Of a stretch of DNA of 64,000 bases, positions 11,931 through 64,000 are shown piece after piece (the first letter of the stretch is position 1; every line of letters begins with the position of its first letter). A model generated the notes under the pieces. The model had not been told where the DNA came from and searched no databases. It saw nothing but the letters and a program-made list of their open reading frames with translations. This DNA comes from Candidatus Limnocylindrales bacterium (GTDB lineage: Bacteria > Chloroflexota > Limnocylindria > Limnocylindrales > CSP1-4). The stretch is taken from positions 12,008 through 76,007 of the forward strand of contig JBCLDE010000003.1 of the NCBI GenBank assembly GCA_038915165.1, written 5' to 3'. Position numbers and translations under genes: made by a program.

Positions 11931-12014
11931 CGCCCGCCAGCTCGCCCGCCCTCGCCCGCCCCGCCAGCTCGCCCGCCCCGCCAGCTCGCCCGCCCCGCCC
12001 TCGCTCCGCCAGCT
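11931..12014. repeat. Imperfect GC-rich tandem array (CGCCCGCC[CCGCC]AGCT units), copy 1
   Basis: Contains two exact tandem 17-mers cgcccgccccgccagct at 11953..11986, flanked by degenerate units. Confidence 0.85.
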
Positions 12015-47913: not shown

Positions 47914-48804
47914 ATGGAATCGAATGGATCCCGGCTCACGCTTCCGGACCGCCCTTGTCAGCCAGGCGGCATCCTGTTGGTCGGCATCAACCCGACTCCG
48001 GTGTCCGTCGCCGCTGGCCACTACTATCAGGGTCGGCTTGGCAAGCGGCTCTGGGGCCGCCTTCGTGGCCTTGAGGCTCTGAACAAGGGTTCCGGCACCT
48101 GGGAGGACGACGAGTTCGTCGCGGCTGGCAACGGCCTCACCGATCTCGTCAAACGGCCGACTGGCGCCGCGAACCAGCTCTCAGCGGAAGAGCTCGCCAC
48201 CGGACGAACCGCCTTGGTGGCCAACGTCCGTGGCTGGCGACCAGGCCTGCTTCTCTTTGCGTTCCGTCCCCCGGCGGAGGCGCTCCTTGGCAAGAGCATC
48301 GCATCAGGGCGCGGCCCCGACTTCGAGGGCGTCCCGACGTTCCTCCTGTCACCGCCCTATGCACCCAGGCAAGTCGCCGCGGCGATCGACGTCGGACTCT
48401 TGGCCGTCATCCGCGATCTACGAACGCAGCATGGCCCACCCGGGGCCGACCCGCACCCATTGCCTCGCCAGGACCCGGACGTGACGCCGGCACCGCCCTT
48501 GGTCGCTCAGTCGGCCGTGGGTCCGACTCAGCGGGTCACCCATGCTGACCTTCGCGCTGGGCGCATCCGAGTACCCGCGCGGAGTAGCAGCGACGCAAAG
48601 TCGGTCCTCCCTCAGCAGGTCGGACGAGTTCGAATAGACCTCCGCGGCGAGGAGATGGTTGTCCAGTACAACCCAAGGTTTGGTCCCGATCGGGAGCGAT
48701 CTGGCGTCTTGAGGGTGGGAACCGCCCGCCTTGCGGGCCTGGTGACGGCGGAAGAGATCCTTCAGGTCACGGTCAACCAAGACGGAGTCGTCTGCCTCGA
48801 TTGA
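47914..48804 (+). CDS. MUG/UDG-superfamily glycosylase-like domain fused to an uncharacterised C-terminal domain, copy 2
   Basis: 296 aa. ..ILLVGINPTPVSVAAGHYYQGRLGKRLWGRL.. (GINP motif as in mismatch uracil glycosylases), ..GLTDLVKRPT.., ..FLLSPPYAP... About 110 aa of the C-terminus (..THADLRAGRIRVP..VVQYNPRFGPDRERSGVL..) have no family I can name. Confidence 0.65.
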   Translation: MESNGSRLTLPDRPCQPGGILLVGINPTPVSVAAGHYYQGRLGKRLWGRLRGLEALNKGSGTWEDDEFVAAGNGLTDLVKRPTGAANQLSAEELATGRTALVANVRGWRPGLLLFAFRPPAEALLGKSIASGRGPDFEGVPTFLLSPPYAPRQVAAAIDVGLLAVIRDLRTQHGPPGADPHPLPRQDPDVTPAPPLVAQSAVGPTQRVTHADLRAGRIRVPARSSSDAKSVLPQQVGRVRIDLRGEEMVVQYNPRFGPDRERSGVLRVGTARLAGLVTAEEILQVTVNQDGVVCLD

Positions 48805-49001
48805 CTTGGCTGCGGCCGGACCACGGCGTCCGCGCGCCGGTGCGTCCGCGCGCCGGTCGACGGGCGACATCGCGTGCCACCTGGTGTGGCCCCATCGACG
48901 GCACGATGACCACGTCGTGTCCGGGCGGAGCCTGCCCCCTCAGCTTCCGCCGCCGCGCCTACCGCGGCTTGTACACTCTCCCGACGGAGGTGCGCGCACT
49001 G

Positions 49002-50087
49002 ATGAACGACCTGGCGCTGGCGCTCACGAACGTGCGCGCTCGGATTGCGAAGTTCGGGGGGCAGACGATCGGCGAGGAGAACACCAAGCACGCCCTGATC
49101 GAGCCGGTGTTGCGAGCCCTCGGCTGGGATGTGGGAGACCTCGACGAAGTGCGCTGCGAGTACAAGCTCAAGCAGGCTGACAACCCAGTCGACTACGCCC
49201 TGTTCGTGAACGGGGGGCTGCGCCTACTCGTCGAGGCGAAGGCGCTCGGGGAGAATCTGTCCAAGTCGGCTCATCAGATCATGGGCTACGCCGGCGTAGC
49301 GGGCATCGTCGAGTGGATTGTGCTCACGGACGGGAATGAGTACCGCATCTACAACGCCTACGCCCCCGTCCACATCGACCAGAAGCTCTTCAAGCGGGTC
49401 GTTGTCGCTTCGGACGAGCCCGGACTCGCGGAGACCCTCGGGCTCCTGTCGAAGGCGCAGCTCCAGAGCACGGTGATCGATGACCTGTGGCGCGCCTACT
49501 TCGTCGACCGGCAGGTGAAGAAGGTCGTCCAGGATCTCGCCGGACTTGATGCCCCGACAGACTTCGTCAACCTTGTTCGCAAGCGGGTTCCCGCGCTATC
49601 CACGGCCGAGGTTCGGCAGAGTCTGGGACGCGCCACGCTCTCGCTGGACTACGGGACCCTCAAGTTGGCGCCGACCCTCCCGGTTGGCGCGAAGGCGCCG
49701 GTCAGCCCGCCGGCCACCGTCCCGCCGGCCGTCAAGGACGTGGGGGACAAGGACCCCGGCCCTGACAAGACGCCGTGGCGCCACGTGACCCTCAAGGATC
49801 TGATCGCGTCGGGCACGATCGCGCTGCCGCTCGACATCGAGACGACGTACAAGGGCCACCAGCTCACCGCACGCATAGAGACAGACGGCACCGTGACGTG
49901 GAGCGGCACCAGCTACGGCTCGATCTCGATGGCCGGGGCGATGGCACGCAAGTCGATCGTGGGCGCGCCACCAGGCCGCGAGTTCCAACCGACCAACGGC
50001 TGGACCTTTTGGCGCTTCCGAGACGCGGACGGAAGCCTGGCCTTCGTCGACGTGCTGCGCCAGCGCCATCTCACGAGCTCGATGTGA
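49002..50087 (+). CDS. HsdR_N-type PD-(D/E)xK nuclease domain protein with DUF4357-like C-terminus, copy 2
   Basis: 361 aa from ATG 49002 (GGAGG 11 nt upstream). ..NTKHALIEPVLRALGWD..PVDYALFVNGGLRLLVEAKALG.. (D..ExK). C-terminus ..WSGTSYGSISMAGAMARKS..PTNGWTFWRF.. is paralogous to the 42984..43868 tail. Confidence 0.7.
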   Translation: MNDLALALTNVRARIAKFGGQTIGEENTKHALIEPVLRALGWDVGDLDEVRCEYKLKQADNPVDYALFVNGGLRLLVEAKALGENLSKSAHQIMGYAGVAGIVEWIVLTDGNEYRIYNAYAPVHIDQKLFKRVVVASDEPGLAETLGLLSKAQLQSTVIDDLWRAYFVDRQVKKVVQDLAGLDAPTDFVNLVRKRVPALSTAEVRQSLGRATLSLDYGTLKLAPTLPVGAKAPVSPPATVPPAVKDVGDKDPGPDKTPWRHVTLKDLIASGTIALPLDIETTYKGHQLTARIETDGTVTWSGTSYGSISMAGAMARKSIVGAPPGREFQPTNGWTFWRFRDADGSLAFVDVLRQRHLTSSM

Positions 50088-50280: not shown

Positions 50281-52722
50281 GTGCCACGCGGACGAACTGA
50301 GTTGACCCAAGCGAAGGCAAGGACTCGCCGACGGCGTTCGCCACGAGGTTCGGCCATCGCGCCTCTCGGAGTGATGGGACCCGACGGCCTCGCACGCTTG
50401 CGGGAGGCGATTCTCGAGCTAGACCCCGAGGGGCGGCACGTCCAGCTCGACGTCTCAACCGGCACCGTACGCTATGGCGACGAGATCATCCTGCACTCGG
50501 CCATCAGTACCTACGTGGGCGAGGAGGAACCGGCCCGCGCCTACCTCGTGGCTTGGCTGTGCACTAAGGGTGGGTACCTCCCCGCCAACATCGAACTCGA
50601 GAAGGCGTATTCCATCGGACGGCCGAAGCTCGGTGCTCGACTCGACATTCTTGTGAACTATCCGGATGGCACGCCATATGCGCTCATCGAAGTCAAGAGT
50701 CCGGTCGAGTTCGGAGTGGACCCGGACAGGTTCATCGAGGGCCAGCTGTTCAACATCGCGCCTCACGAGAAGGGCAGTCGCGTTCTCGCCTACACCACCG
50801 TGCGGGTCTCCGAGACTGCTAGCCCCGTTGTCCTAGCCATCGGCTTCACCGATGGAGACAAGTACTCGACTTGGGTCAGCAATGGAAGACCCGCGGCTGC
50901 CGAGTTCCCCGTCAGCTACGGAGATGCCACCCACGAGCACCTTGTCAACGGAGGAGGGGTTGACTTGCGGGTTGACGTTGGAGGCGCTGAGCTGGAGCGC
51001 CTCCGCAAGCGGCTGCATGACGTGCTTTGGAGGGGGTCGACGCCCGACAACGACATCTACGAGCATGTCGTCAAGCTGTTCCTCGCCAAGATCTACGACG
51101 AGAAGACGACCAATGGCGGAGAACGCTACGAATTCCAGCGCTGCTACGTGGGTGTTCAGCCAGAGACTACTCTCCGCACGTTCCAGAGGATCAACGACCT
51201 CTACAAGCGCGGCTACGCGCGCTATCTCAATCCCGGCGAAGGTGGCGCGACAAGTGAGCTCGACGGAAGGAAGTTCAGTCCTGACCAAACTGCGTTCGTA
51301 GTCGAGCTTCTCCAGGGGATCTCGCTGACGTCAACTCGCGGTGGAGACGTACTTGGCGGCTTCTTTGAGGGGATCACCCGCGACGGCTTCAAGCAGTCGA
51401 AGGGGCTCTTCTTTACGCACGCCAACATCGCGGCGTTCGTGATCATGGCGCTCGAGCTAGATGAACTAGCCATCGAGAAGATCACGAGCAACGCGCACTA
51501 CGACGATCGATTCCCCTACATCATCGATCCGTCTTGCGGCTCCGGGACCTTCCTCCTATCGGCGATGCATCTCATCACCCAGCGGATCGAGGGCGAAAGA
51601 GCAGCGATCTCGCGCAACGAAGATGTGAGAGAGCTCTTGAGGGATAAGGCTCCCTCCGAACATGCCAATCGATGGGCAAAGGACTTCATCTTCGGGATCG
51701 ATGACTCGGAGTTGCTGTCAATGGCAACGAAAGTCAACATGGTCCTTCACCGCGATGGCAACACGCACGTGTACCAAGCTGACGGGCTTTCGGCGCTGGA
51801 CCGATTCCGGGACCAGCGTTTGAAAGGTCGCGACCCGGCTGACGCCGCCGTGTATTCGAAGAAGGTCGCTGTCGCCTTCGATGCCGTGGTGTCGAATCCT
51901 CCGTTCAGCATCACCCTTGTGCCTGCAACTGCTGCGACACTTGCCTCCACATTCGAGCTCGCTGCAAGCGCAAACTCGGAGAACTTGTTTCTCGAGAGGT
52001 GGTACCAGCTGCTGAAGCCGGGAGGCCGCCTTGGGGTGGTGCTCCCGGAGAGCTTCTTCGCGACGAAGGAGAATCTGAACGCTCGCTTGTTCCTCTTCAA
52101 CCACTTCAATGTGAGAGCTGTGGTCGGCCTCCCAAGGCTTGCCTTTGAGCCGTGGACGCCCACCAAGACTTCGCTCCTCTTTGCCCAGAAGAAGTCGGAT
52201 GCGGAGGAGCTGGCATGGAAGAACACTCGGATCAGGCACGAGCGAGAGATTGAGGTTGCCAAGGCCGCAGTGGCGAGCGCGACCCGACGGTTCGCCAGGG
52301 ACGCGACGGCGAGTCGCCCGATGGGGCCGAAGGAGGGGTCCGAGCTGATCGCGACGCTGCGGTCGTCCCTGTCTGGGCTCGATCTAGCTCCGCCCGACGA
52401 CACCGGGGAGCTTATGGCGAAGCTGCCGGCTCTAGCCAAGGTCAGCAAGGCTGTGAACACGACTGTGCTTGCAGTCCAGAGAACTGCGCGAGAGTTGGAC
52501 CTCGACTTCCTGGTAATCAGTGTCAGTATGATCGGCTACAAGCGGACGAAACGCACTGAGTACGACCGACCAAACGAGCTATTCCAGGCGATGGCGGGAC
52601 GGCGTCGTCGCCGGGCAAGAGTCCTGAACTTGAATAGGACGACGGCCGATTGGTCTATCGAGACGCCTCGCCGGGGCGCGGACGCGCTGAGTATCCTCCG
52701 ACGTTCACGAATCTGGCAATGA
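50281..52722 (+). CDS. PD-(D/E)xK (HsdR_N-like) + gamma-class N6-adenine DNA methyltransferase fusion (type IIB/BcgIA-like or type I HsdM-like), copy 2, complete
   Basis: 813 aa. N-terminus ..RLDILVNYPDGTPYALIEVKSP... HsdM-like helix bundle ..VVKLFLAKIYDEK... Motif I IIDPSCGSGTFLL and motif IV VVSNPPFS. The stop overlaps the S-subunit ATG. The start is uncertain (GTG 50281 or ATG 50374). Confidence 0.85.
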   Translation: MPRGRTELTQAKARTRRRRSPRGSAIAPLGVMGPDGLARLREAILELDPEGRHVQLDVSTGTVRYGDEIILHSAISTYVGEEEPARAYLVAWLCTKGGYLPANIELEKAYSIGRPKLGARLDILVNYPDGTPYALIEVKSPVEFGVDPDRFIEGQLFNIAPHEKGSRVLAYTTVRVSETASPVVLAIGFTDGDKYSTWVSNGRPAAAEFPVSYGDATHEHLVNGGGVDLRVDVGGAELERLRKRLHDVLWRGSTPDNDIYEHVVKLFLAKIYDEKTTNGGERYEFQRCYVGVQPETTLRTFQRINDLYKRGYARYLNPGEGGATSELDGRKFSPDQTAFVVELLQGISLTSTRGGDVLGGFFEGITRDGFKQSKGLFFTHANIAAFVIMALELDELAIEKITSNAHYDDRFPYIIDPSCGSGTFLLSAMHLITQRIEGERAAISRNEDVRELLRDKAPSEHANRWAKDFIFGIDDSELLSMATKVNMVLHRDGNTHVYQADGLSALDRFRDQRLKGRDPADAAVYSKKVAVAFDAVVSNPPFSITLVPATAATLASTFELAASANSENLFLERWYQLLKPGGRLGVVLPESFFATKENLNARLFLFNHFNVRAVVGLPRLAFEPWTPTKTSLLFAQKKSDAEELAWKNTRIRHEREIEVAKAAVASATRRFARDATASRPMGPKEGSELIATLRSSLSGLDLAPPDDTGELMAKLPALAKVSKAVNTTVLAVQRTARELDLDFLVISVSMIGYKRTKRTEYDRPNELFQAMAGRRRRRARVLNLNRTTADWSIETPRRGADALSILRRSRIWQ

Positions 52723-58159: not shown

Positions 58160-59785
58160 TCATCGACCCGCCACCTGTTCGTCATCTGCCCCTTGCTCCG
58201 AGGAGCGCACCTCCTGATCCGCCCGGGGCTGGTCCGCGATCGGCCGCGCAATCATGAACTCGGGTGGTTGGCAGGGCCCCGCGGCTCCCGGAAGCCCCCG
58301 GGTTCCCCAGAACTGGGCGACTCGTGACGTCCATGCCGCGCGGGACGAGGCGCCGAGGAGCACGCGATCAACGTCAAGGCTTGCATTTCCCTTCCTGTTG
58401 CCGAGTGGCCAGGCGGGGCTCGAACCGTAGCCGAGCGCGATTCGGGCGATGATCGCGCGGCGTAGCAGGTCGCGCCATCGATCGAGTGCGAGAAGGAATT
58501 GCTCGCCTTTCCACTCCGTGGCGTCACTGCCGGTTACCGCAGCGATCTTCTCGTCGATCTTCTCCCTCGACATCGTCGCGCCGTGGACGAAGGTGGACCG
58601 CAGCTCATACAGGATCTTCACGTCCTCGTAGATGGCTTCCGGCGGATCCTGCTCAGTGCCGAGCAGGTGAGCGGCGCGCGACCGCAGCCGAAGGGCGATA
58701 TCGTTCCGCGCGGTCCCTGCTAGGGCAGCCTCGAGCCCGACCGCAAGATCGACCGCTTGATCCACGAGCGACTGCATCGTCCCATCAAGTGAGCGCCCGA
58801 GGCGACCGAGGGCAATGGTGAGCGGCGAGTCCCATCGGCCCGGCGTCACCAGCTCATCGAGAAGCGCGACGAGGGACTCGATGCCGGGCACGACGACTTC
58901 GTCGAGCGTCACCGGTCTGTGAACGAAGCGGAAGCCCCAGTGCGGAAGCCTGGTGACGTTTGGGGGATGTGCATGAACCAGGCCAGGCTGTCCGGCGATG
59001 TCGACGAGAGCGTGGAGAGTCGACGCGGTCGCGAGTCGAATCGCCGATGTGACCAGCCAGACCCTGCGACGTGCGTGGTGCTGGAGTTCCTCGTACTTCG
59101 CCCGCCCGATCTCCTCGGCCAGCAGGAGCGCGGTCGGACCGGGCCAGGCGAAAGCGTCGGACCGAGCGATGTCGAATCCGGCCGACGGAACCTCACGCTC
59201 GACGAAGCGCTCGGCCTGATTGCCGACGCGAATGACCTTGACGCCGGCGATAGTCAGCTCTTCACCGAAGCGGTCGCCGTGACCCTCGCCCGCCTCGTGG
59301 GCGACGTCGATGTCCGACACGATCTGAACCACCTTCGCGCGGGGAAGTGCCTGGACGGTAAGCACCAGTTCGGCGACGCACTTCTGGACTGACGGGCTCT
59401 TCGGGTCGTACGCCTCGCCTGCTCTCGTGGCGGCAGCTACAGCCGCCTCGAGGAGGGCGGTCGGATAGGACCAGGGCAAGTCGATCCCGCTGTTGCGGTG
59501 TAGGTCGAAGCGGTCAGGAAGCGCCTCGGCCAGTCTCTTCGCCAGAGTCCCCTCGCTTCCCTCGATCGCCCAGCCCTCGTAGTCGGTCCCGACGCGAATC
59601 CAGCGCTCGTATCGCGACCTGGGCAGGACTCGCTCCTGCCTCAGAATGGCGAAGGAGCGAGCGAGCGCGGCCTCCGCAGCCGCCCGAATTGCCGCCTCAT
59701 CCGCCGGCGTCAGCGGGAACGGCGTTGCGATCGGATCGGTCACCTCGATCCCCTCGTTGGCTTCGGATTCGCTCGACCTTGTCAT
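58160..59785 (-). CDS. HEPN-like (Rx4H) domain protein, 541 aa, large uncharacterised N-terminal region
   Basis: C-terminal module ..AVDLAVGLEAALAG..ALRLRSRAAHLLG..IYEDVKILYELRSTFVHG.. with RSTFVH = Rx4H. Paralogous to the C-terminus of 62912..64000. Confidence 0.6.
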   Translation of the reverse strand: MTRSSESEANEGIEVTDPIATPFPLTPADEAAIRAAAEAALARSFAILRQERVLPRSRYERWIRVGTDYEGWAIEGSEGTLAKRLAEALPDRFDLHRNSGIDLPWSYPTALLEAAVAAATRAGEAYDPKSPSVQKCVAELVLTVQALPRAKVVQIVSDIDVAHEAGEGHGDRFGEELTIAGVKVIRVGNQAERFVEREVPSAGFDIARSDAFAWPGPTALLLAEEIGRAKYEELQHHARRRVWLVTSAIRLATASTLHALVDIAGQPGLVHAHPPNVTRLPHWGFRFVHRPVTLDEVVVPGIESLVALLDELVTPGRWDSPLTIALGRLGRSLDGTMQSLVDQAVDLAVGLEAALAGTARNDIALRLRSRAAHLLGTEQDPPEAIYEDVKILYELRSTFVHGATMSREKIDEKIAAVTGSDATEWKGEQFLLALDRWRDLLRRAIIARIALGYGSSPAWPLGNRKGNASLDVDRVLLGASSRAAWTSRVAQFWGTRGLPGAAGPCQPPEFMIARPIADQPRADQEVRSSEQGADDEQVAGR

Positions 59786-60101: not shown

Positions 60102-61940
60102 TCAGCGTCTGCTTGCCACGCTCCACAGTCTATCCGCCACGCTGAGGTAGTCGTCCGACCACGACAGCGCCTCGTTCTCCTCGGCCGATAGTGGGTTGCC
60201 CAGTTCCTGCCAGGCCCCCGCCAGTCGTTCCGCAATCACCGCCGCCTGACCGCCCGGCTCGGCCAGCAGGTACGTGGGAATCCCGCGCTGGCGGGCGATG
60301 TGCCACTCTTCATCGACCCCGGGCGAATGGCCGCCTCCCTCGCTGGTCCGGCCGCCGACGATCACCGCGAGGTCGGCTCGGCTTGGCTGGATCATCGCCT
60401 CCCTCATCGCGGTGAGAGAGGCTACAAGCGTGTCGCCCCTTGGCACCTCGACGACGGTCGCCTGCGCCGCCAGGGAGACGACGAACGCAGGCGTCGTGAA
60501 CCAGGCCGACTGGTAGATGGTGAGCCGCTTAGCACCGTCCTCACCGACAGTTGCCCTGGCGACCTCGAGCAGAAGTGGCGTGAAGGTGGGATGGCCGCCG
60601 AAGATGATGGCTCCGCCGAGCTCGAGCCAGCGACGGCAGACCGAGTTGACCGCAGCGATCACGCGGGGGTGGGTCCGAGGATCTGCAGGAAAGGCGCCGA
60701 GGAGAAGCAGACTCGGTCGCTCGGCGACGCTCTCTGGACTGGCTTCCGCTCTGGTCAGGTTGCCGACGTACCGCTCCGCGGATTCGACGAGCGACCACTC
60801 GTTCAGGGGCTGTGCGCGAGCCACGCCGGGCCGAAGCAGGAGCGACGCATCGAATCCTCGGCAGCCCGTCGCGTGCTCAAGATAGCCGTTGGCGCCCAGC
60901 CACCCCCTGAGCTGCTCCCAGTCCTCGGACGCTGGGCAGCGCCCGTACAGCTGCACGATATGCACCCGTCGTCGGTTGGGGTATGGGCCAATCCCATCAT
61001 CGAGCGAGACCGCGTAGATCAGCTGTCGCTGGTCCAGCGCCTGCACCTCCGCCCCGGCCGCGTCCGCCCAGCTTTTGAGACGCTCGAAGGCATGGGTGGT
61101 CGCCGAGACATGGAGCCGGACTTCGTCGAGGGCAGCATCGAGCACGTCGCGGGCGAGGTCGCCTGCCGCACCCGGGGTCCCGGCCATCAGCTGAGGCCCT
61201 CCTGCAGGGCAGACGGCCAGAGGGACGCGCCCGTCGGCCGGCCCGACCCGGATCCACACGATGGGAATATTCTGGCCCAGGGCGACGCTCAGCTCCTTCG
61301 CGATCCAGTCGGACTCCCCCGCGCGTAACGTGTCGATGAAGACGAGGACATCGGCGGTCGTGAGCTTGGCCTCGATGACGTCTTGCGCTGGGTCGCCGAC
61401 CTGGATGTCGATGAGGTCCCTGAACACGTGCTCGTGATGCACGCTGAGCTCACGATCCAGATCTGCCGCCTCGACTTCACCGTCCGCGCGCCGATATGTG
61501 ATGAACAGACGCAGGCGGTCCTTGTAGAACGTGGGCGCCACCCGAGCGAGGGCTGCGTGCGCGAACCACCGCGCCGCGATGTCGAGGCGAGTCGGGGCGT
61601 GTCCCGAGCGCCGAAGTTGTTCGGTGACGTCGAAGCTCTGGGCAGCCCCGATAGACGTCGGAGGCGCCCGGTGATCAGCGTCAAGGGCGACCGGCAGCAG
61701 CACCGCGCCAGCCGTTGCCGCCTGCTCGAGGAAGGCGTCGACATCGGGGTCCAGCGGGCCGGCGCCGATCACCAGAGCGACGCCGTCCGCCGGCCCGACG
61801 GTGCGGCCCGTTGCGGCCGCCGGGCTCGCAATCCAGGAAGTCGGGTGGAATTCGCGGAGGCGCCGGTCCGACCGCTCGAGGAACTCGCGAGCGACCGGGC
61901 CGTCCGCTCCCGTCAGGCGGGGGTCCACCAGGTACAGCAT
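60102..61940 (-). CDS. TIR-SLOG protein (ThsA-like sensor/effector lacking SIR2)
   Basis: 612 aa; GGAGA 8 nt upstream of the ATG. Central TIR ..RLFITYRRADGEVEAADLDRELS..VFRDLIDIQVGD..ADVLVFIDT..ESDWIAKELSVAL..IPIVWIRV... C-terminal SLOG-like Rossmann module ..SLLLLGAF..GGAIIFGGHPTFTP..LTIYQS..DLAVIVGGRTSEGGGHSPGVDEEWHIARQRGIPTYLLAEPGGQAAVIA... No SIR2 GAGxS motif was found. Confidence 0.7.
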   Translation of the reverse strand: MLYLVDPRLTGADGPVAREFLERSDRRLREFHPTSWIASPAAATGRTVGPADGVALVIGAGPLDPDVDAFLEQAATAGAVLLPVALDADHRAPPTSIGAAQSFDVTEQLRRSGHAPTRLDIAARWFAHAALARVAPTFYKDRLRLFITYRRADGEVEAADLDRELSVHHEHVFRDLIDIQVGDPAQDVIEAKLTTADVLVFIDTLRAGESDWIAKELSVALGQNIPIVWIRVGPADGRVPLAVCPAGGPQLMAGTPGAAGDLARDVLDAALDEVRLHVSATTHAFERLKSWADAAGAEVQALDQRQLIYAVSLDDGIGPYPNRRRVHIVQLYGRCPASEDWEQLRGWLGANGYLEHATGCRGFDASLLLRPGVARAQPLNEWSLVESAERYVGNLTRAEASPESVAERPSLLLLGAFPADPRTHPRVIAAVNSVCRRWLELGGAIIFGGHPTFTPLLLEVARATVGEDGAKRLTIYQSAWFTTPAFVVSLAAQATVVEVPRGDTLVASLTAMREAMIQPSRADLAVIVGGRTSEGGGHSPGVDEEWHIARQRGIPTYLLAEPGGQAAVIAERLAGAWQELGNPLSAEENEALSWSDDYLSVADRLWSVASRR

Positions 61941-61967
61941 CGCCCCGTCTCCGCCGACTCGTCCAGG

Positions 61968-62417
61968 CTACTTGCCCACCTTCTTAGCCGCCTTCTCGAC
62001 CCAGTCGCCGAAGTTGTTGTAGCCGTTATCGCTCACCCAATCGTAGACCGGGTACGTGCTCGGCAGGGGGTTTGGGCCGTCAGTGTCCGTGTTGCCAACC
62101 TGATCCTTGATCCGGTGAATGCGGACGCCTAGGAGCCCGTTTCCGCGGGCGATGCTCTGGGTGATCTCGTACTGAACGTACTCGCGGCGGGCTGTCTGTG
62201 CCCCGATCAGCACCGCCGTGACAGTGGTGCCTACGAGGGCACCGTCGATCATCCTCTCGATGGCTTGCTGACCCTTCTTCTTGGCCTCTTCCCAGATGCC
62301 CGCGTCGAAGAAGCCGGCGGCCTCGCGATCCGCCTTCGTCACCCAGCTGTTGCGCACGACGCTGGCCCGCCACACGTCGCGCTCGTAGTGGAAGCTGAAG
62401 AACACCCGTCTGGCCAT
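61968..62417 (-). CDS. thsB: ThsB-like TIR-domain protein (DUF1863-type)
   Basis: 149 aa from ATG 62417 (GGAGG 6 nt upstream; ORF-track start 62540 adds an Arg-rich leader). MARRVFFSFHYERDVWRASVVRNSWVTK..AGFFDAGIWEEAKKK..VTAVLIGAQTARREYVQYEITQSI..GPNPLP..YPVYDWVSDNGYNNFGDWV closely parallels my recollection of Bacillus cereus ThsB. The stop lies 27 nt before the TIR-SLOG start. Confidence 0.8.
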   Translation of the reverse strand: MARRVFFSFHYERDVWRASVVRNSWVTKADREAAGFFDAGIWEEAKKKGQQAIERMIDGALVGTTVTAVLIGAQTARREYVQYEITQSIARGNGLLGVRIHRIKDQVGNTDTDGPNPLPSTYPVYDWVSDNGYNNFGDWVEKAAKKVGK

Positions 62418-62911
62418 GACCTGCCTCCGTCCTCTGCGGCTCGGCGTCTGCCGCTTGCCGCTCGTCGCCCTGACCGTCTTGCGGACGTTGACCTTGGTCC
62501 GGTTGCCAACCGTTGCGCTTCGGGCACGGGCACGCTTCACGGGCTCGCGTATGCCTGATACCTCAAGAATCCGGTGCCAGAGTCGATTTAGCAGGCTCCG
62601 GAATGACGCGCTCGTCGGTTGCTCTCAGTCTGCGAGTAGTCCATCTACTGTAGACCATCGAGCCGCGTGTGACCTAGCTCCACCCGCGCGGGGCGCTCGA
62701 TCGCGGCTCAGGGTCATCCAGCGGAGCACCCCCCGGTGTCACCGAGAGGCAATCGTGGCGCTCTGCGCTGTGTTCGCTGCGTAGGCCACCTCAGCGGGGG
62801 CTTGGGCGTGGGTCGCCGCGGGCGCGCCGGGGGGTGCCGGGACGAACACGATCTTGCCATCGTGGCGTTCGTCGGGTTCGTCGTCTGGGGGCCAGCTGCG
62901 TCCCGCACGCG

Positions 62912-64000
62912 TTACTCGCGCGCCGCGCCTGGTGCGGCGAAGATCGATTCATCCCAATCGAAGAATGGGCTCTTGCTGCGGTTTGCCGCCGAGAGGGCGA
63001 GAGCTTGTTGGATTGCGCGACGCATGTCCCCTTCGATCGCCGAGGTGAACTCGTCGAGTGTCACAGGCTTGTGCTCGCTACTTCCCCAGGTTTCCGGCGT
63101 TGGGGTCCCACCATGGACGATGGCGCTCCGCGTGTCGTAGGCCCTGCGCATTCGCTTTGCGAGGGTCATCCGCTCGCTTGTCGTGCTGCCAAGCAGGTGG
63201 GCCGCGTGGAGTGCCAGTCGGAACCGCAGTTCCCCTCCGTGGTCCGTCATGTGCCCAAGGAATAGAGACTCGGCCGCGATCATGAGGTCGAGGAGGCGGT
63301 CGTCGGCTCGGTGACGCTCACTGGCAAAGGAGAAGCGGCGAGCCGCGTTCTCGACGTATGGGCGCCGTTGGACCCCACGCGACGCCAGGGCGGACGCCAG
63401 CGTCTCGATTCCAGGACGGTCCGCCTCGGTCACTTCATAGGTGCTGAAGCCGATGTAGCCCGGTGCGAGGAATCCTGACGTGGTGGATTGTCCAGGGCCG
63501 AGATCCACGGTGAACGACATGTAGCCGACTCCAGCGATTGCCCCGGCTCTGTGCACACGAAGCGCGACCAATCCGCGCTCGAGTTCAGCCGATGCGCGCT
63601 CGTAGTACCTACTGGGTTGCGTGCCACCCTGGAGACGCTCGAACGCCGCTGCCCCTACGACCTTCGGCAGCCTCTGACGGACGCGGATGCCCCATACGGC
63701 CGGTTCATTCTGGAAGATGGCCAGCGTTCCGATGCCTCGGACCACGCCGACGCTCAGTGATCGCGCGATCTCGGCATCGGTCAGCCGGTCAACCTCGGTC
63801 ACATCGCTCAGGACGAAGGGCGCATCGGCGGTTCCAGCGAACCCCGCCAATGGCATCAATGTGACTTGCTCCACGGTCTCGGCCGCGAACACAGCCATGA
63901 CCTCGCCAAGACGCTCATCGAACAAGTCGGCCCGGAAGTCGAACGGGCTGTGAGAATCGGAGGCGGCGGCGATCAGACTCCAAAGGAACTGCGAGATCTG
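62912..64000 (-). CDS. HEPN-like (Rx4H) domain protein; 5' end outside the window
   Basis: The track gives 337 aa from TTG 63925, but the frame stays open to nt 64000 (..QISQFLWSLIAAASDSHSPFDFRADLFDERLG..). C-terminal module ..LDLMIAAESLFLG..ELRFRLALHAAHLLG..MRRAYDTRSAIVHGG.. with RSAIVH = Rx4H. Confidence 0.6.
   Translation of the reverse strand, partial: QISQFLWSLIAAASDSHSPFDFRADLFDERLGEVMAVFAAETVEQVTLMPLAGFAGTADAPFVLSDVTEVDRLTDAEIARSLSVGVVRGIGTLAIFQNEPAVWGIRVRQRLPKVVGAAAFERLQGGTQPSRYYERASAELERGLVALRVHRAGAIAGVGYMSFTVDLGPGQSTTSGFLAPGYIGFSTYEVTEADRPGIETLASALASRGVQRRPYVENAARRFSFASERHRADDRLLDLMIAAESLFLGHMTDHGGELRFRLALHAAHLLGSTTSERMTLAKRMRRAYDTRSAIVHGGTPTPETWGSSEHKPVTLDEFTSAIEGDMRRAIQQALALSAANRSKSPFFDWDESIFAAPGAARE

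Follow-up and report, generated by a model that had tools for sequence, protein, structure and literature searches.

A divergent type IX Thoeris pair, ThsB and a ThsJ-like TIR-SLOG protein, predicted in a contig of a Candidatus Limnocylindrales bacterium

The DNA analyzed here, called the window in what follows, is a stretch of 64,000 nucleotides (nt) from contig JBCLDE010000003.1 of a Candidatus Limnocylindrales bacterium (positions 12,008 to 76,007 of the forward strand). On its minus strand it carries two genes, one for a free-standing TIR protein of the ThsB kind and the other for a 612-amino-acid (612-aa) protein, ThsJ-like, in which a TIR domain and a SLOG domain are part of the same polypeptide. 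Judging from the domains and from an end-to-end homology to the effector ThsJ, the locus appears to be an intact, divergent type IX Thoeris pair, and not a new kind of system. The likely explanation of the pair is a two-gene anti-phage system in which a signal made by ThsB would be sensed by the SLOG domain and would switch on the depletion of nicotinamide adenine dinucleotide (NAD+) by the TIR domain. A first-pass annotation, made from the letters of the sequence, had proposed a Thoeris-type operon with a TIR-SLOG effector in the place of the SIR2-SLOG one, and this proposal is supported by the results described below. The same annotation knew of no experimental characterization of this architecture, which had already been named type IX and, with the operon of Bacillus cereus VD021, put to the test (Yirmiya et al., bioRxiv 10.64898/2025.12.03.692087).

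The two genes and their presumptive translation signals are located as follows.

61968..62417, minus strand: thsB, 149 aa from ATG, a free-standing TIR of the ThsB_TIR/DUF1863 type
62424..62428, minus strand: Shine-Dalgarno-like GGAGG, 6 nt 5′ of the thsB ATG, from a direct reading of the sequence
60102..61940, minus strand: thsJ-like gene, 612 aa, four-domain TIR-SLOG protein, stop codon at 60102-60104
61949..61952, minus strand: Shine-Dalgarno-like GGAG, 8 nt 5′ of the thsJ ATG, within the thsB-thsJ spacer

Both open reading frames (ORFs) were found on the minus strand where the first-pass annotation had placed them, with the 612-aa gene downstream of thsB on the same strand and a spacer of exactly 27 nt (61941-61967), and all the peptide motifs quoted in that annotation are present in the translations. 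An alternative thsB ORF has a GTG start and reaches 62540; the start at 62417 was preferred because the GGAGG lies 6 nt upstream of its ATG, and the ATG-initiated protein matches the PADLOC ThsB profile from profile position 1. No promoter-like or terminator-like site was found between the two genes in simple scans. As far as can be read from the DNA, this layout is consistent with one two-gene operon.

Concerning the product of thsB, its earlier identification as a ThsB-type TIR was borne out by matches to the Pfam family PF08937, ThsB_TIR (E 2e-22), and to the PADLOC ThsB model PDLC00431 over the whole model length (E 5.5e-62). Its sequence identity is 54% with the TIR domain of the ThsB of B. 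cereus MSX-D12, a type I system, and 48% with ‘TIR 2’ of the type III system of Pseudomonas aeruginosa L0872. The glutamate of its YEI motif, which had been equated with the catalytic one of TIR enzymes, is E84 (motif YVQYEI); it aligns with E85 of BcThsB, whose mutation E85Q abolishes defence, so it occupies the catalytic position and can be regarded as the putative catalytic residue. Within the pair, ThsB is predicted to sense infection and to synthesize the signal.

The 612-aa protein was modelled with AlphaFold2 from 94 homologues (predicted local distance difference test, pLDDT, 93; predicted TM-score, pTM, 0.90), and the model displays four domains, listed here in the order of the polypeptide.

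61521..61940, minus strand: N-terminal domain, aa 1-140, four-stranded α/β, flavodoxin/SIS-like
61191..61520, minus strand: TIR domain, approximately aa 141-250, SARM1-like, TIR_2 match at 1.8e-9
60729..61190, minus strand: middle domain, approximately aa 251-404, a mixed β-sheet domain that comes after a long helix (259-294), confidently modelled
60105..60728, minus strand: SLOG domain, aa 405-612, of the LD_cluster3 type (3.5e-13), NCBIfam ThcA match at 2.9e-18

Profile searches and structure prediction, both put forward as checks in the first-pass annotation, agreed in the TIR and SLOG nature of the protein. In Pfam, residues 146-233 gave a significant match to TIR_2 (E 1.8e-9) and residues 443-580 to the SLOG families LD_cluster3 (3.5e-13) and LD_cluster2 (9.6e-13). 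No SIR2 or Macro match was found in Pfam, PADLOC or NCBIfam, with SIR2 looked for at E values up to 1, so the statement that the effector part is a second TIR instead of SIR2 was upheld. When the model was compared by Foldseek with the structures of the Protein Data Bank (PDB), ThsA came out on top (6lhx, 8bto); the match to the SLOG domain of BcThsA bound to 3′-cyclic ADP-ribose (3′cADPR; 7uxs) had a probability of 1.0 and a target-normalized TM-score (TMt) of 0.61, and SARM1 TIR domains came next in the ranking, with TMt 0.55-0.65. The claim of a ThsA-like C-terminal SLOG stood for the domain and the fold but not for the subfamily, which by sequence is that of LD_cluster3 and type III ThcA and not STALD, the SLOG family of ThsA: the STALD match was at E 0.012, with 15.5 bits against a cut-off of 24 bits, and the PADLOC ThsA model was matched at E 0.042 by the SLOG part only.

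In the TIR domain, the residues invariant in the alignment of 94 sequences are F146, R150 and R151, within the motif FITYRR, and W212 and E216, which form a WxxxE motif. The ThsJ family profile matches the structures of SARM1, AbTIR, TcpB and TIR-SAVED (7qqk). The stretch LFITYRR aligns with VFISYRR of SARM1, and SDWIAKE with KDWVHKE, such that E216 aligns with the glutamate of the SARM1 motif DWVHKEIV. The latter corresponds to the catalytic E642 of SARM1.

In the SLOG domain, G415, G448, H450, P451, T452, F453, R513, G529, G530, G541 and E545 are invariant, and this domain is the predicted receptor for the nucleotide made by ThsB. In sequence searches, its kinship to ThsA was reached by the family profile only: the profile of the SLOG region matched the ThsA sequences of 8wc0 (1.6e-5), 7uxt (6e-4) and BcThsA (0.1), and single-sequence searches of the same region against PDB sequences gave nothing. 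To map the binding pocket, the SLOG-profile alignment was combined with the contacts of 3′cADPR in BcThsA given by Manik et al. (preprint), with the following correspondences.

BcThsA G289 to ThsJ G415, invariant in the ThsJ family
BcThsA S290 to ThsJ A416, changed to alanine
BcThsA R371 to ThsJ R513, invariant in the ThsJ family
BcThsA K388 to ThsJ R531, nearly invariant (R or K)
BcThsA G399 to ThsJ G541, invariant in the ThsJ family
BcThsA E403 to ThsJ E545, invariant in the ThsJ family

Five of the six mapped contacts are thus conserved, and the pocket seems largely, not wholly, ThsA-like.

The two other domains had been left unassigned in the first-pass annotation (about 140 aa at the N-terminus and about 150 aa in the middle), and so they remain, although both are well folded and conserved. 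The N-terminal domain, which gave a pLDDT of 95.6 when modelled alone, contains the invariant residues D52, R91, P93, Q101 and D104, and part of it is common to ThcB4 of type III Thoeris. It received no significant assignment in a profile search of PDB sequences, in Pfam at E up to 10, or by Foldseek, where the fold matches were weak (best E 0.011, TM about 0.5) and corresponded to SIS phosphosugar-binding domains, receiver domains and DNPH1. The middle domain, with no Pfam match, has conserved residues that include Q330, D340 and a motif formed by C360, R361, D364 and A365; it may be a coupling or oligomerization module.

Type IX Thoeris is defined by a ThsB protein and a ‘TIR and SLOG’ effector named ThsJ (Yirmiya et al., bioRxiv 10.64898/2025.12.03.692087, Table S2, December 2025; the Yirmiya preprint in what follows). 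The type IX kind rests so far on this single preprint, and no other mention of type IX or ThsJ was found in the literature searched. TIR-SLOG fusions as such were known earlier from comparative genomics, and the Pfam name STALD stands for ‘Sir2- and TIR-associating SLOG’. According to the Yirmiya preprint, the type IX operon of B. cereus VD021 defended Bacillus subtilis, its two genes being sufficient for defence, SP82G, a phage against which it protects, served as the trigger of its ThsB, and type IX ThsB makes 3′cADPR upon infection. The VD021 ThsJ was recovered by way of the ThsB sequence of Table S1 in that preprint, through a 100% identical protein (P0105) and then the contigs of the latter (locus L077). 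In this locus, a 623-aa protein is encoded directly downstream of ThsB and shows TIR_2, LD_cluster2/3 and weak STALD matches. The 612-aa protein of the window aligns with it from residue 3 to residue 603, with 32% identity and 49% positives over 613 aligned residues (E 2e-98). PADLOC v2.0 has no dedicated ThsJ model, and none is matched even by the B. cereus protein. Each of the three published type IX ThsB proteins has homologues that directly adjoin members of the ThsJ family in the loci surveyed.

The ThsJ family is rare but widespread. The window protein has around 100 full-length homologues of 610-635 aa with 32-66% identity, and a HMMER scan of 1.84 billion representatives yielded 100 clusters at E ≤ 1e-30. 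A genome scan gave 75 loci from Actinomycetota, Bacillota, Acidobacteriota, Nitrospirota (Nitrospiraceae) and Pseudomonadota (Acetobacteraceae). The neighbours were surveyed in the 69 loci with a full-length homologue, by clustering the adjacent ORFs and then searching with hidden Markov models built from the clusters, and the counts were as follows.

At least one free-standing TIR gene within 3 kb: 56 of 69 loci
TIR gene within 150 bp: 36 of 69 loci, 34 of them on the same strand
At least two TIR genes within 3 kb: 33 of 69 loci

The adjacency of thsB, which the first-pass annotation had suggested surveying in homologues, is thus conserved. A TIR neighbour occurs in 19 of the 21 closest relatives with intact flanks; among the 69 loci, the 13 where none was detected include several truncated contigs. 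Several different TIR families occupy the ThsB position next to ThsJ, as is known for Thoeris. In the whole window, the only TIR-cluster match besides ThsJ was thsB. ThsJ gave no match by tblastn against phage and plasmid collections, and nothing meaningful was found in a viral fold library.

Some members of the family deserve separate mention. Two Solirubrobacterales homologues with 44-45% identity (L039, 6019-7730, and L040, 2-1551) are split into two overlapping ORFs, which indicates a frameshift, to be explained either by a pseudogene or by an error in sequencing. Among the TIR genes beside ThsJ, about 20 loci have a gene for a small protein of about 105-200 aa, predicted to be a membrane protein and with no Pfam match (L001, L003, L004, L015, L018, L029-L032, L035-L038, L041, L043, L045, L051, L057, L061, L067 and L070); this protein may serve as a further effector or in an accessory role, and no gene of that cluster is present in the window. 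In a distant ThsJ subgroup (L041-L070; mostly Lachnospiraceae and Clostridia; 24-28% identity to the window protein), an Nmad2 protein (Pfam 3e-61) adjoins in 9-11 loci, and candidate neighbours resembling aGPT-pyrophosphorylase, thymidylate synthase and dTMP kinase were recognized by eye. This suggests that the subgroup is linked to prophages or to modules for the hypermodification of nucleotides or DNA.

Another aspect of the family concerns its relation to type III Thoeris, which reportedly consists of a SLOG protein, ThcA, and TIR proteins ThcB1-4, as in P. aeruginosa L0872. For comparison, type III was represented by the NCBIfam models, by the TIR sequences of Table S1 in the Yirmiya preprint and by two operons that pass the NCBIfam cut-offs. 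The window protein matched the ThcA model with residues 427-575 (2.9e-18; 66.2 bits, the equivalog cut-off being 110 bits) and the ThcB4 model with residues 141-230 (1.6e-16; 60.2 bits, the equivalog cut-off being 220 bits). The B. cereus ThsJ matches positions 37-266 of the ThcB4 model and positions 20-168 of the ThcA model. In the two operons passing the ThcB4 and ThcA cut-offs (L079, 738-2565, and L080, 7001-8247), thcB4 lies directly upstream of thcA, with ThsB-type TIR genes alongside. The full-length ThcB4 ORF of L079 (368 aa) aligns with ThsJ 51-236 (hhalign probability 97.4%) and ThcA with ThsJ 429-574 (97.7%). The source gene calls of ThcB4 are N-terminally truncated, with 201 and 221 aa as compared with the 368 aa of the ORF in L079.

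From these alignments, ThsJ looks like a fusion of ThcB4, which would provide the N-terminal domain and the TIR, to ThcA, which would provide the SLOG, and on this ground types III and IX are probably the split and the fused forms of one system. In two further, distant loci (L071, 5488-7419, and L072, 5575-7424) the two halves are encoded by adjacent genes; they match the ThsJ profile with hhalign probabilities of 98.8% and 98.1%, respectively, and their scores place them in between the type III models and fused ThsJ, suggesting that the split and fused forms have interconverted. This fusion origin is not mentioned in the main text of the Yirmiya preprint, a comparison that does not extend to the original type III paper. 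If true, the fusion would bring under a single mechanism two Thoeris types that carry different names, and the type III ‘SLOG effector’ probably acts as a TIR/SLOG pair of ThcB4 with ThcA.

The mechanism that we favor for the window pair would comprise four steps. First, ThsB would detect infection and use NAD+ to form a cyclic nucleotide derived from ADP-ribose, most likely 3′cADPR, which is the best guess because of the resemblance of this ThsB to that of type I and because of the type IX data. Second, the C-terminal SLOG domain of the ThsJ-like protein would bind the nucleotide. Third, binding would shift the assembly state of ThsJ, as happens in ThsA and SARM1, turning on the SARM1-like TIR. 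Fourth, the TIR would consume NAD+, with growth arrest or abortive infection as the outcome and phage replication stopped.

Several points weigh against this mechanism or its extension to the window. The main one is that 3′cADPR supplied in the medium was toxic to cells with type I and with one type V system, but not to those with type IX (bioRxiv 10.64898/2025.12.03.692087); so, either the true signal is a different molecule or activation requires a second input. A second type IX operon, from Paenibacillus macerans, gave no defence in B. subtilis (bioRxiv 10.64898/2025.12.03.692087), and in the literature searched no ThsJ is reported to have NADase activity. No role is assigned to two of the four domains of ThsJ. 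In the SLOG pocket, the equivalent of S290 of BcThsA is alanine, and the mapping did not reach the residues that stack on the adenine. Finally, the window ThsJ is just 32% identical to the validated one, and the window ThsB, a 149-aa PF08937 TIR, shows no match to the 258-aa ThsB of VD021 (E 7). As ThsB belongs to another TIR family and ThsJ is this distant, the function of the window pair is extrapolated from VD021.

The insensitivity of type IX cells to exogenous 3′cADPR alone would also fit a different role of ThsJ, which we regard as doubtful, namely that of a relay or amplifier whose TIR would not mainly drain NAD+ but, once SLOG is occupied by the ThsB product, would make more of the same cyclic ADP-ribose isomer, in a positive feedback, or a different one, possibly with a second input through the N-terminal or the middle domain. 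The W of the WxxxE motif common to the TIRs AbTir and SARM1, which form cyclic ADP-ribose, is presumably the tryptophan implicated in cyclization. A conserved tryptophan is reportedly key for the cyclization of ADP-ribose in bacterial TIRs (Manik et al., preprint), and the motif is kept invariant in ThsJ (W212 to E216); WxxxE is, however, also present in purely NAD+-depleting TIRs. The two conserved domains with no assigned function, the N-terminal one weakly resembling phosphosugar- or nucleotide-binding folds, would leave room for a hypothetical second ligand. A downstream effector of the relay could be the small membrane protein of about 20 related loci, but the window does not have its gene, and the sufficiency of the two-gene B. 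cereus operon means that no separate effector is required.

Both activities could also coexist in ThsJ, although we consider it unlikely. ThsJ would then be a coincidence detector or amplifier, and not a simple NAD+ drain, with SLOG binding 3′cADPR, the N-terminal SIS-like or the middle domain receiving a second input, and the WxxxE TIR both making more of a cyclic ADP-ribose isomer, in a positive feedback, and consuming NAD+. If true, this would explain why 3′cADPR alone is not toxic in type IX, and types III and IX would then amount to a relay of two TIRs, in which type III would be the split form, made of ThcB4 plus ThcA.

Very unlikely is a third possibility, that the SLOG domain is an enzyme and no receptor, acting like LOG-family phosphoribohydrolases with a nucleotide or the product of ThsB as its substrate, and with the TIR as a sensor or scaffold. 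The fold of the domain does match the LOG (‘lonely guy’) phosphoribohydrolase 5ajt by Foldseek, and type III ThcA is called an effector in the literature, but the best structural matches are the SLOG domains of ThsA. R513 and E545 are situated, presumably, where the catalytic residues of LOG lie; the same positions in the SLOG of BcThsA bind 3′cADPR without catalysis. Besides, ThsJ has a complete catalytic TIR, which makes a second enzyme unneeded. As to the chance vicinity of two independent single-gene defence proteins, ThsB and TIR-SLOG, defence genes do cluster and the island of the window holds methylase/restriction-like genes and two R-x4-H proteins, but the 27-nt spacing on the same strand, the pairing in 56 of 69 loci of several phyla with swapping of TIR families, and the testing of TIR plus effector as a pair in the Yirmiya preprint make it extremely improbable. 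The sensing of a ThsB signal by SLOG, followed by NAD+ depletion by the TIR, is thus kept as the likely working of the pair.

Other assignments of the locus were considered and set aside. Type I Thoeris with a divergent ThsA was ruled out as there is no SIR2 domain, and type II as there is no Macro match and no transmembrane segment is apparent in the secondary structure of the model. Assignment to type III was rejected since the window encodes one fused polypeptide, its ThcA and ThcB4 scores are below the cut-offs, and a single TIR gene stands beside ThsJ. A TIR effector of the cyclic oligonucleotide-based antiphage signalling system (CBASS) or of the pyrimidine cyclase system for antiphage resistance (Pycsar) was discarded because the searches gave no cyclase, because SLOG is the sensor domain, and because the weak PADLOC matches of the 612-aa protein to SAVED_TIR models cover the TIR part only. 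As to the cyclase, neither a CD-NTase nor a Pycsar cyclase was matched in Pfam by the neighbours scanned between 50 and 64 kb, and the two flanking genes had no PADLOC match. The PADLOC candidate system PDC-M50 was also rejected: ThsB matches PDC-M50B (5e-58), yet the 612-aa protein matches no PDC-M50A model.

Concerning the surroundings of the pair, the region looks like a defence island. A RAMA/HSDR_N protein (48801-50087, plus strand) is followed by an 813-aa protein similar to N6-methylases and Eco57I (50281-52722, plus strand), and the two genes probably form a restriction-modification module, type IIG-like or of another kind, located partly inside an inverted repeat. The genes flanking the pair, 58160-59785 (minus strand, 541 aa) and 62912-63925 (minus strand, 337 aa), share a C-terminal region (pairwise E 5e-6) with an R-x4-H motif, seen as LRSTFVHG and TRSAIVHG, that recalls HEPN nucleases; searches in Pfam, PADLOC and NCBIfam gave no significant match for either protein, and they may be uncharacterized defence genes. 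The 541-aa, 337-aa, 249-aa and 542-aa neighbours were rejected as parts of the system, as no homologues of them occur beside ThsJ in other loci; with flanking genes that do not recur elsewhere, the window would contain the minimal, two-gene form.

The inverted repeat is perfect (100%), with arms of 26,033 nt (1-26033 versus 26364-52396) and a spacer of 330 nt. The arms carry housekeeping genes of chromosomal kind, for cytochrome c oxidase subunits I, II and IV, CtaG, a pyridoxal-phosphate enzyme and an ATP-binding cassette transporter. One arm reaches base 1 of the window and may extend past it, and the 76,410-nt contig recorded for the window protein would agree in length with a palindrome that has the spacer at its centre. 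The repeat is most likely a fold-back assembly artefact, and the whole contig may be a fold-back or long-read artefact and not a true duplication. Within the window, the Thoeris locus lies outside the repeat, and both of its ORFs are intact.

The window pair gives an example of type IX Thoeris in a high-GC chromosome, with a type I-like ThsB joined to ThsJ, and this combination fits the published view that the sensors and effectors of Thoeris are exchanged as modules. The main added value of the analysis lies in the residue and domain map of ThsJ and in the split-fusion link between types III and IX. The map offers E216, W212, R513, R531, G541 and E545, together with the two conserved domains, as mutagenesis targets that bear on what activates ThsJ.

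When compared with known systems, the window locus is closest in organization to type IX as represented by VD021. Both have two genes with thsB directly upstream of the effector, and an effector of about 610-625 aa with four domains in the same order (N-terminal, TIR, middle and LD_cluster3 SLOG) and shared invariant residues in TIR and SLOG; the window host differs in being a high-GC organism and not a Bacillus.

With type III, the window shares the LD_cluster3 subfamily of ThcA, with the common motifs GGHP(T/A)(F/I)TP and SL(T/E)AMR, the succession of ThcB4 and ThcA, which as gene order is the same as the domain order of ThsJ, and the similarity of its ThsB to ‘TIR 2’. It differs in that its counterparts of ThcB4 and ThcA form one polypeptide, whose middle domain is larger, and in the presence of one accessory TIR gene instead of three.

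With type I, that is ThsA (SIR2-SLOG) plus ThsB, it has in common the closely related ThsB, the C-terminal SLOG fold of the effector with most of the residues in contact with 3′cADPR, and the predicted logic by which a signal made by a TIR would activate an NAD+-consuming effector. On the other hand, the effector of the window has TIR instead of SIR2 as its catalytic module, it contains two extra domains, its SLOG is by sequence LD_cluster3 and not STALD, and 3′cADPR alone is reportedly not toxic in type IX.

Finally, TIR-SAVED and TIR-STING of CBASS, the TIR effectors of Pycsar, and SARM1 resemble the window effector in the fusion of a ligand-binding domain to a SARM1-like TIR with the catalytic glutamate. 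The sensor is SLOG in the window, in contrast to SAVED, STING or ARM in TIR-SAVED, TIR-STING and SARM1, and, unlike the case of TIR-SAVED, TIR-STING and Pycsar, the upstream generator of the signal in the window is itself a TIR.

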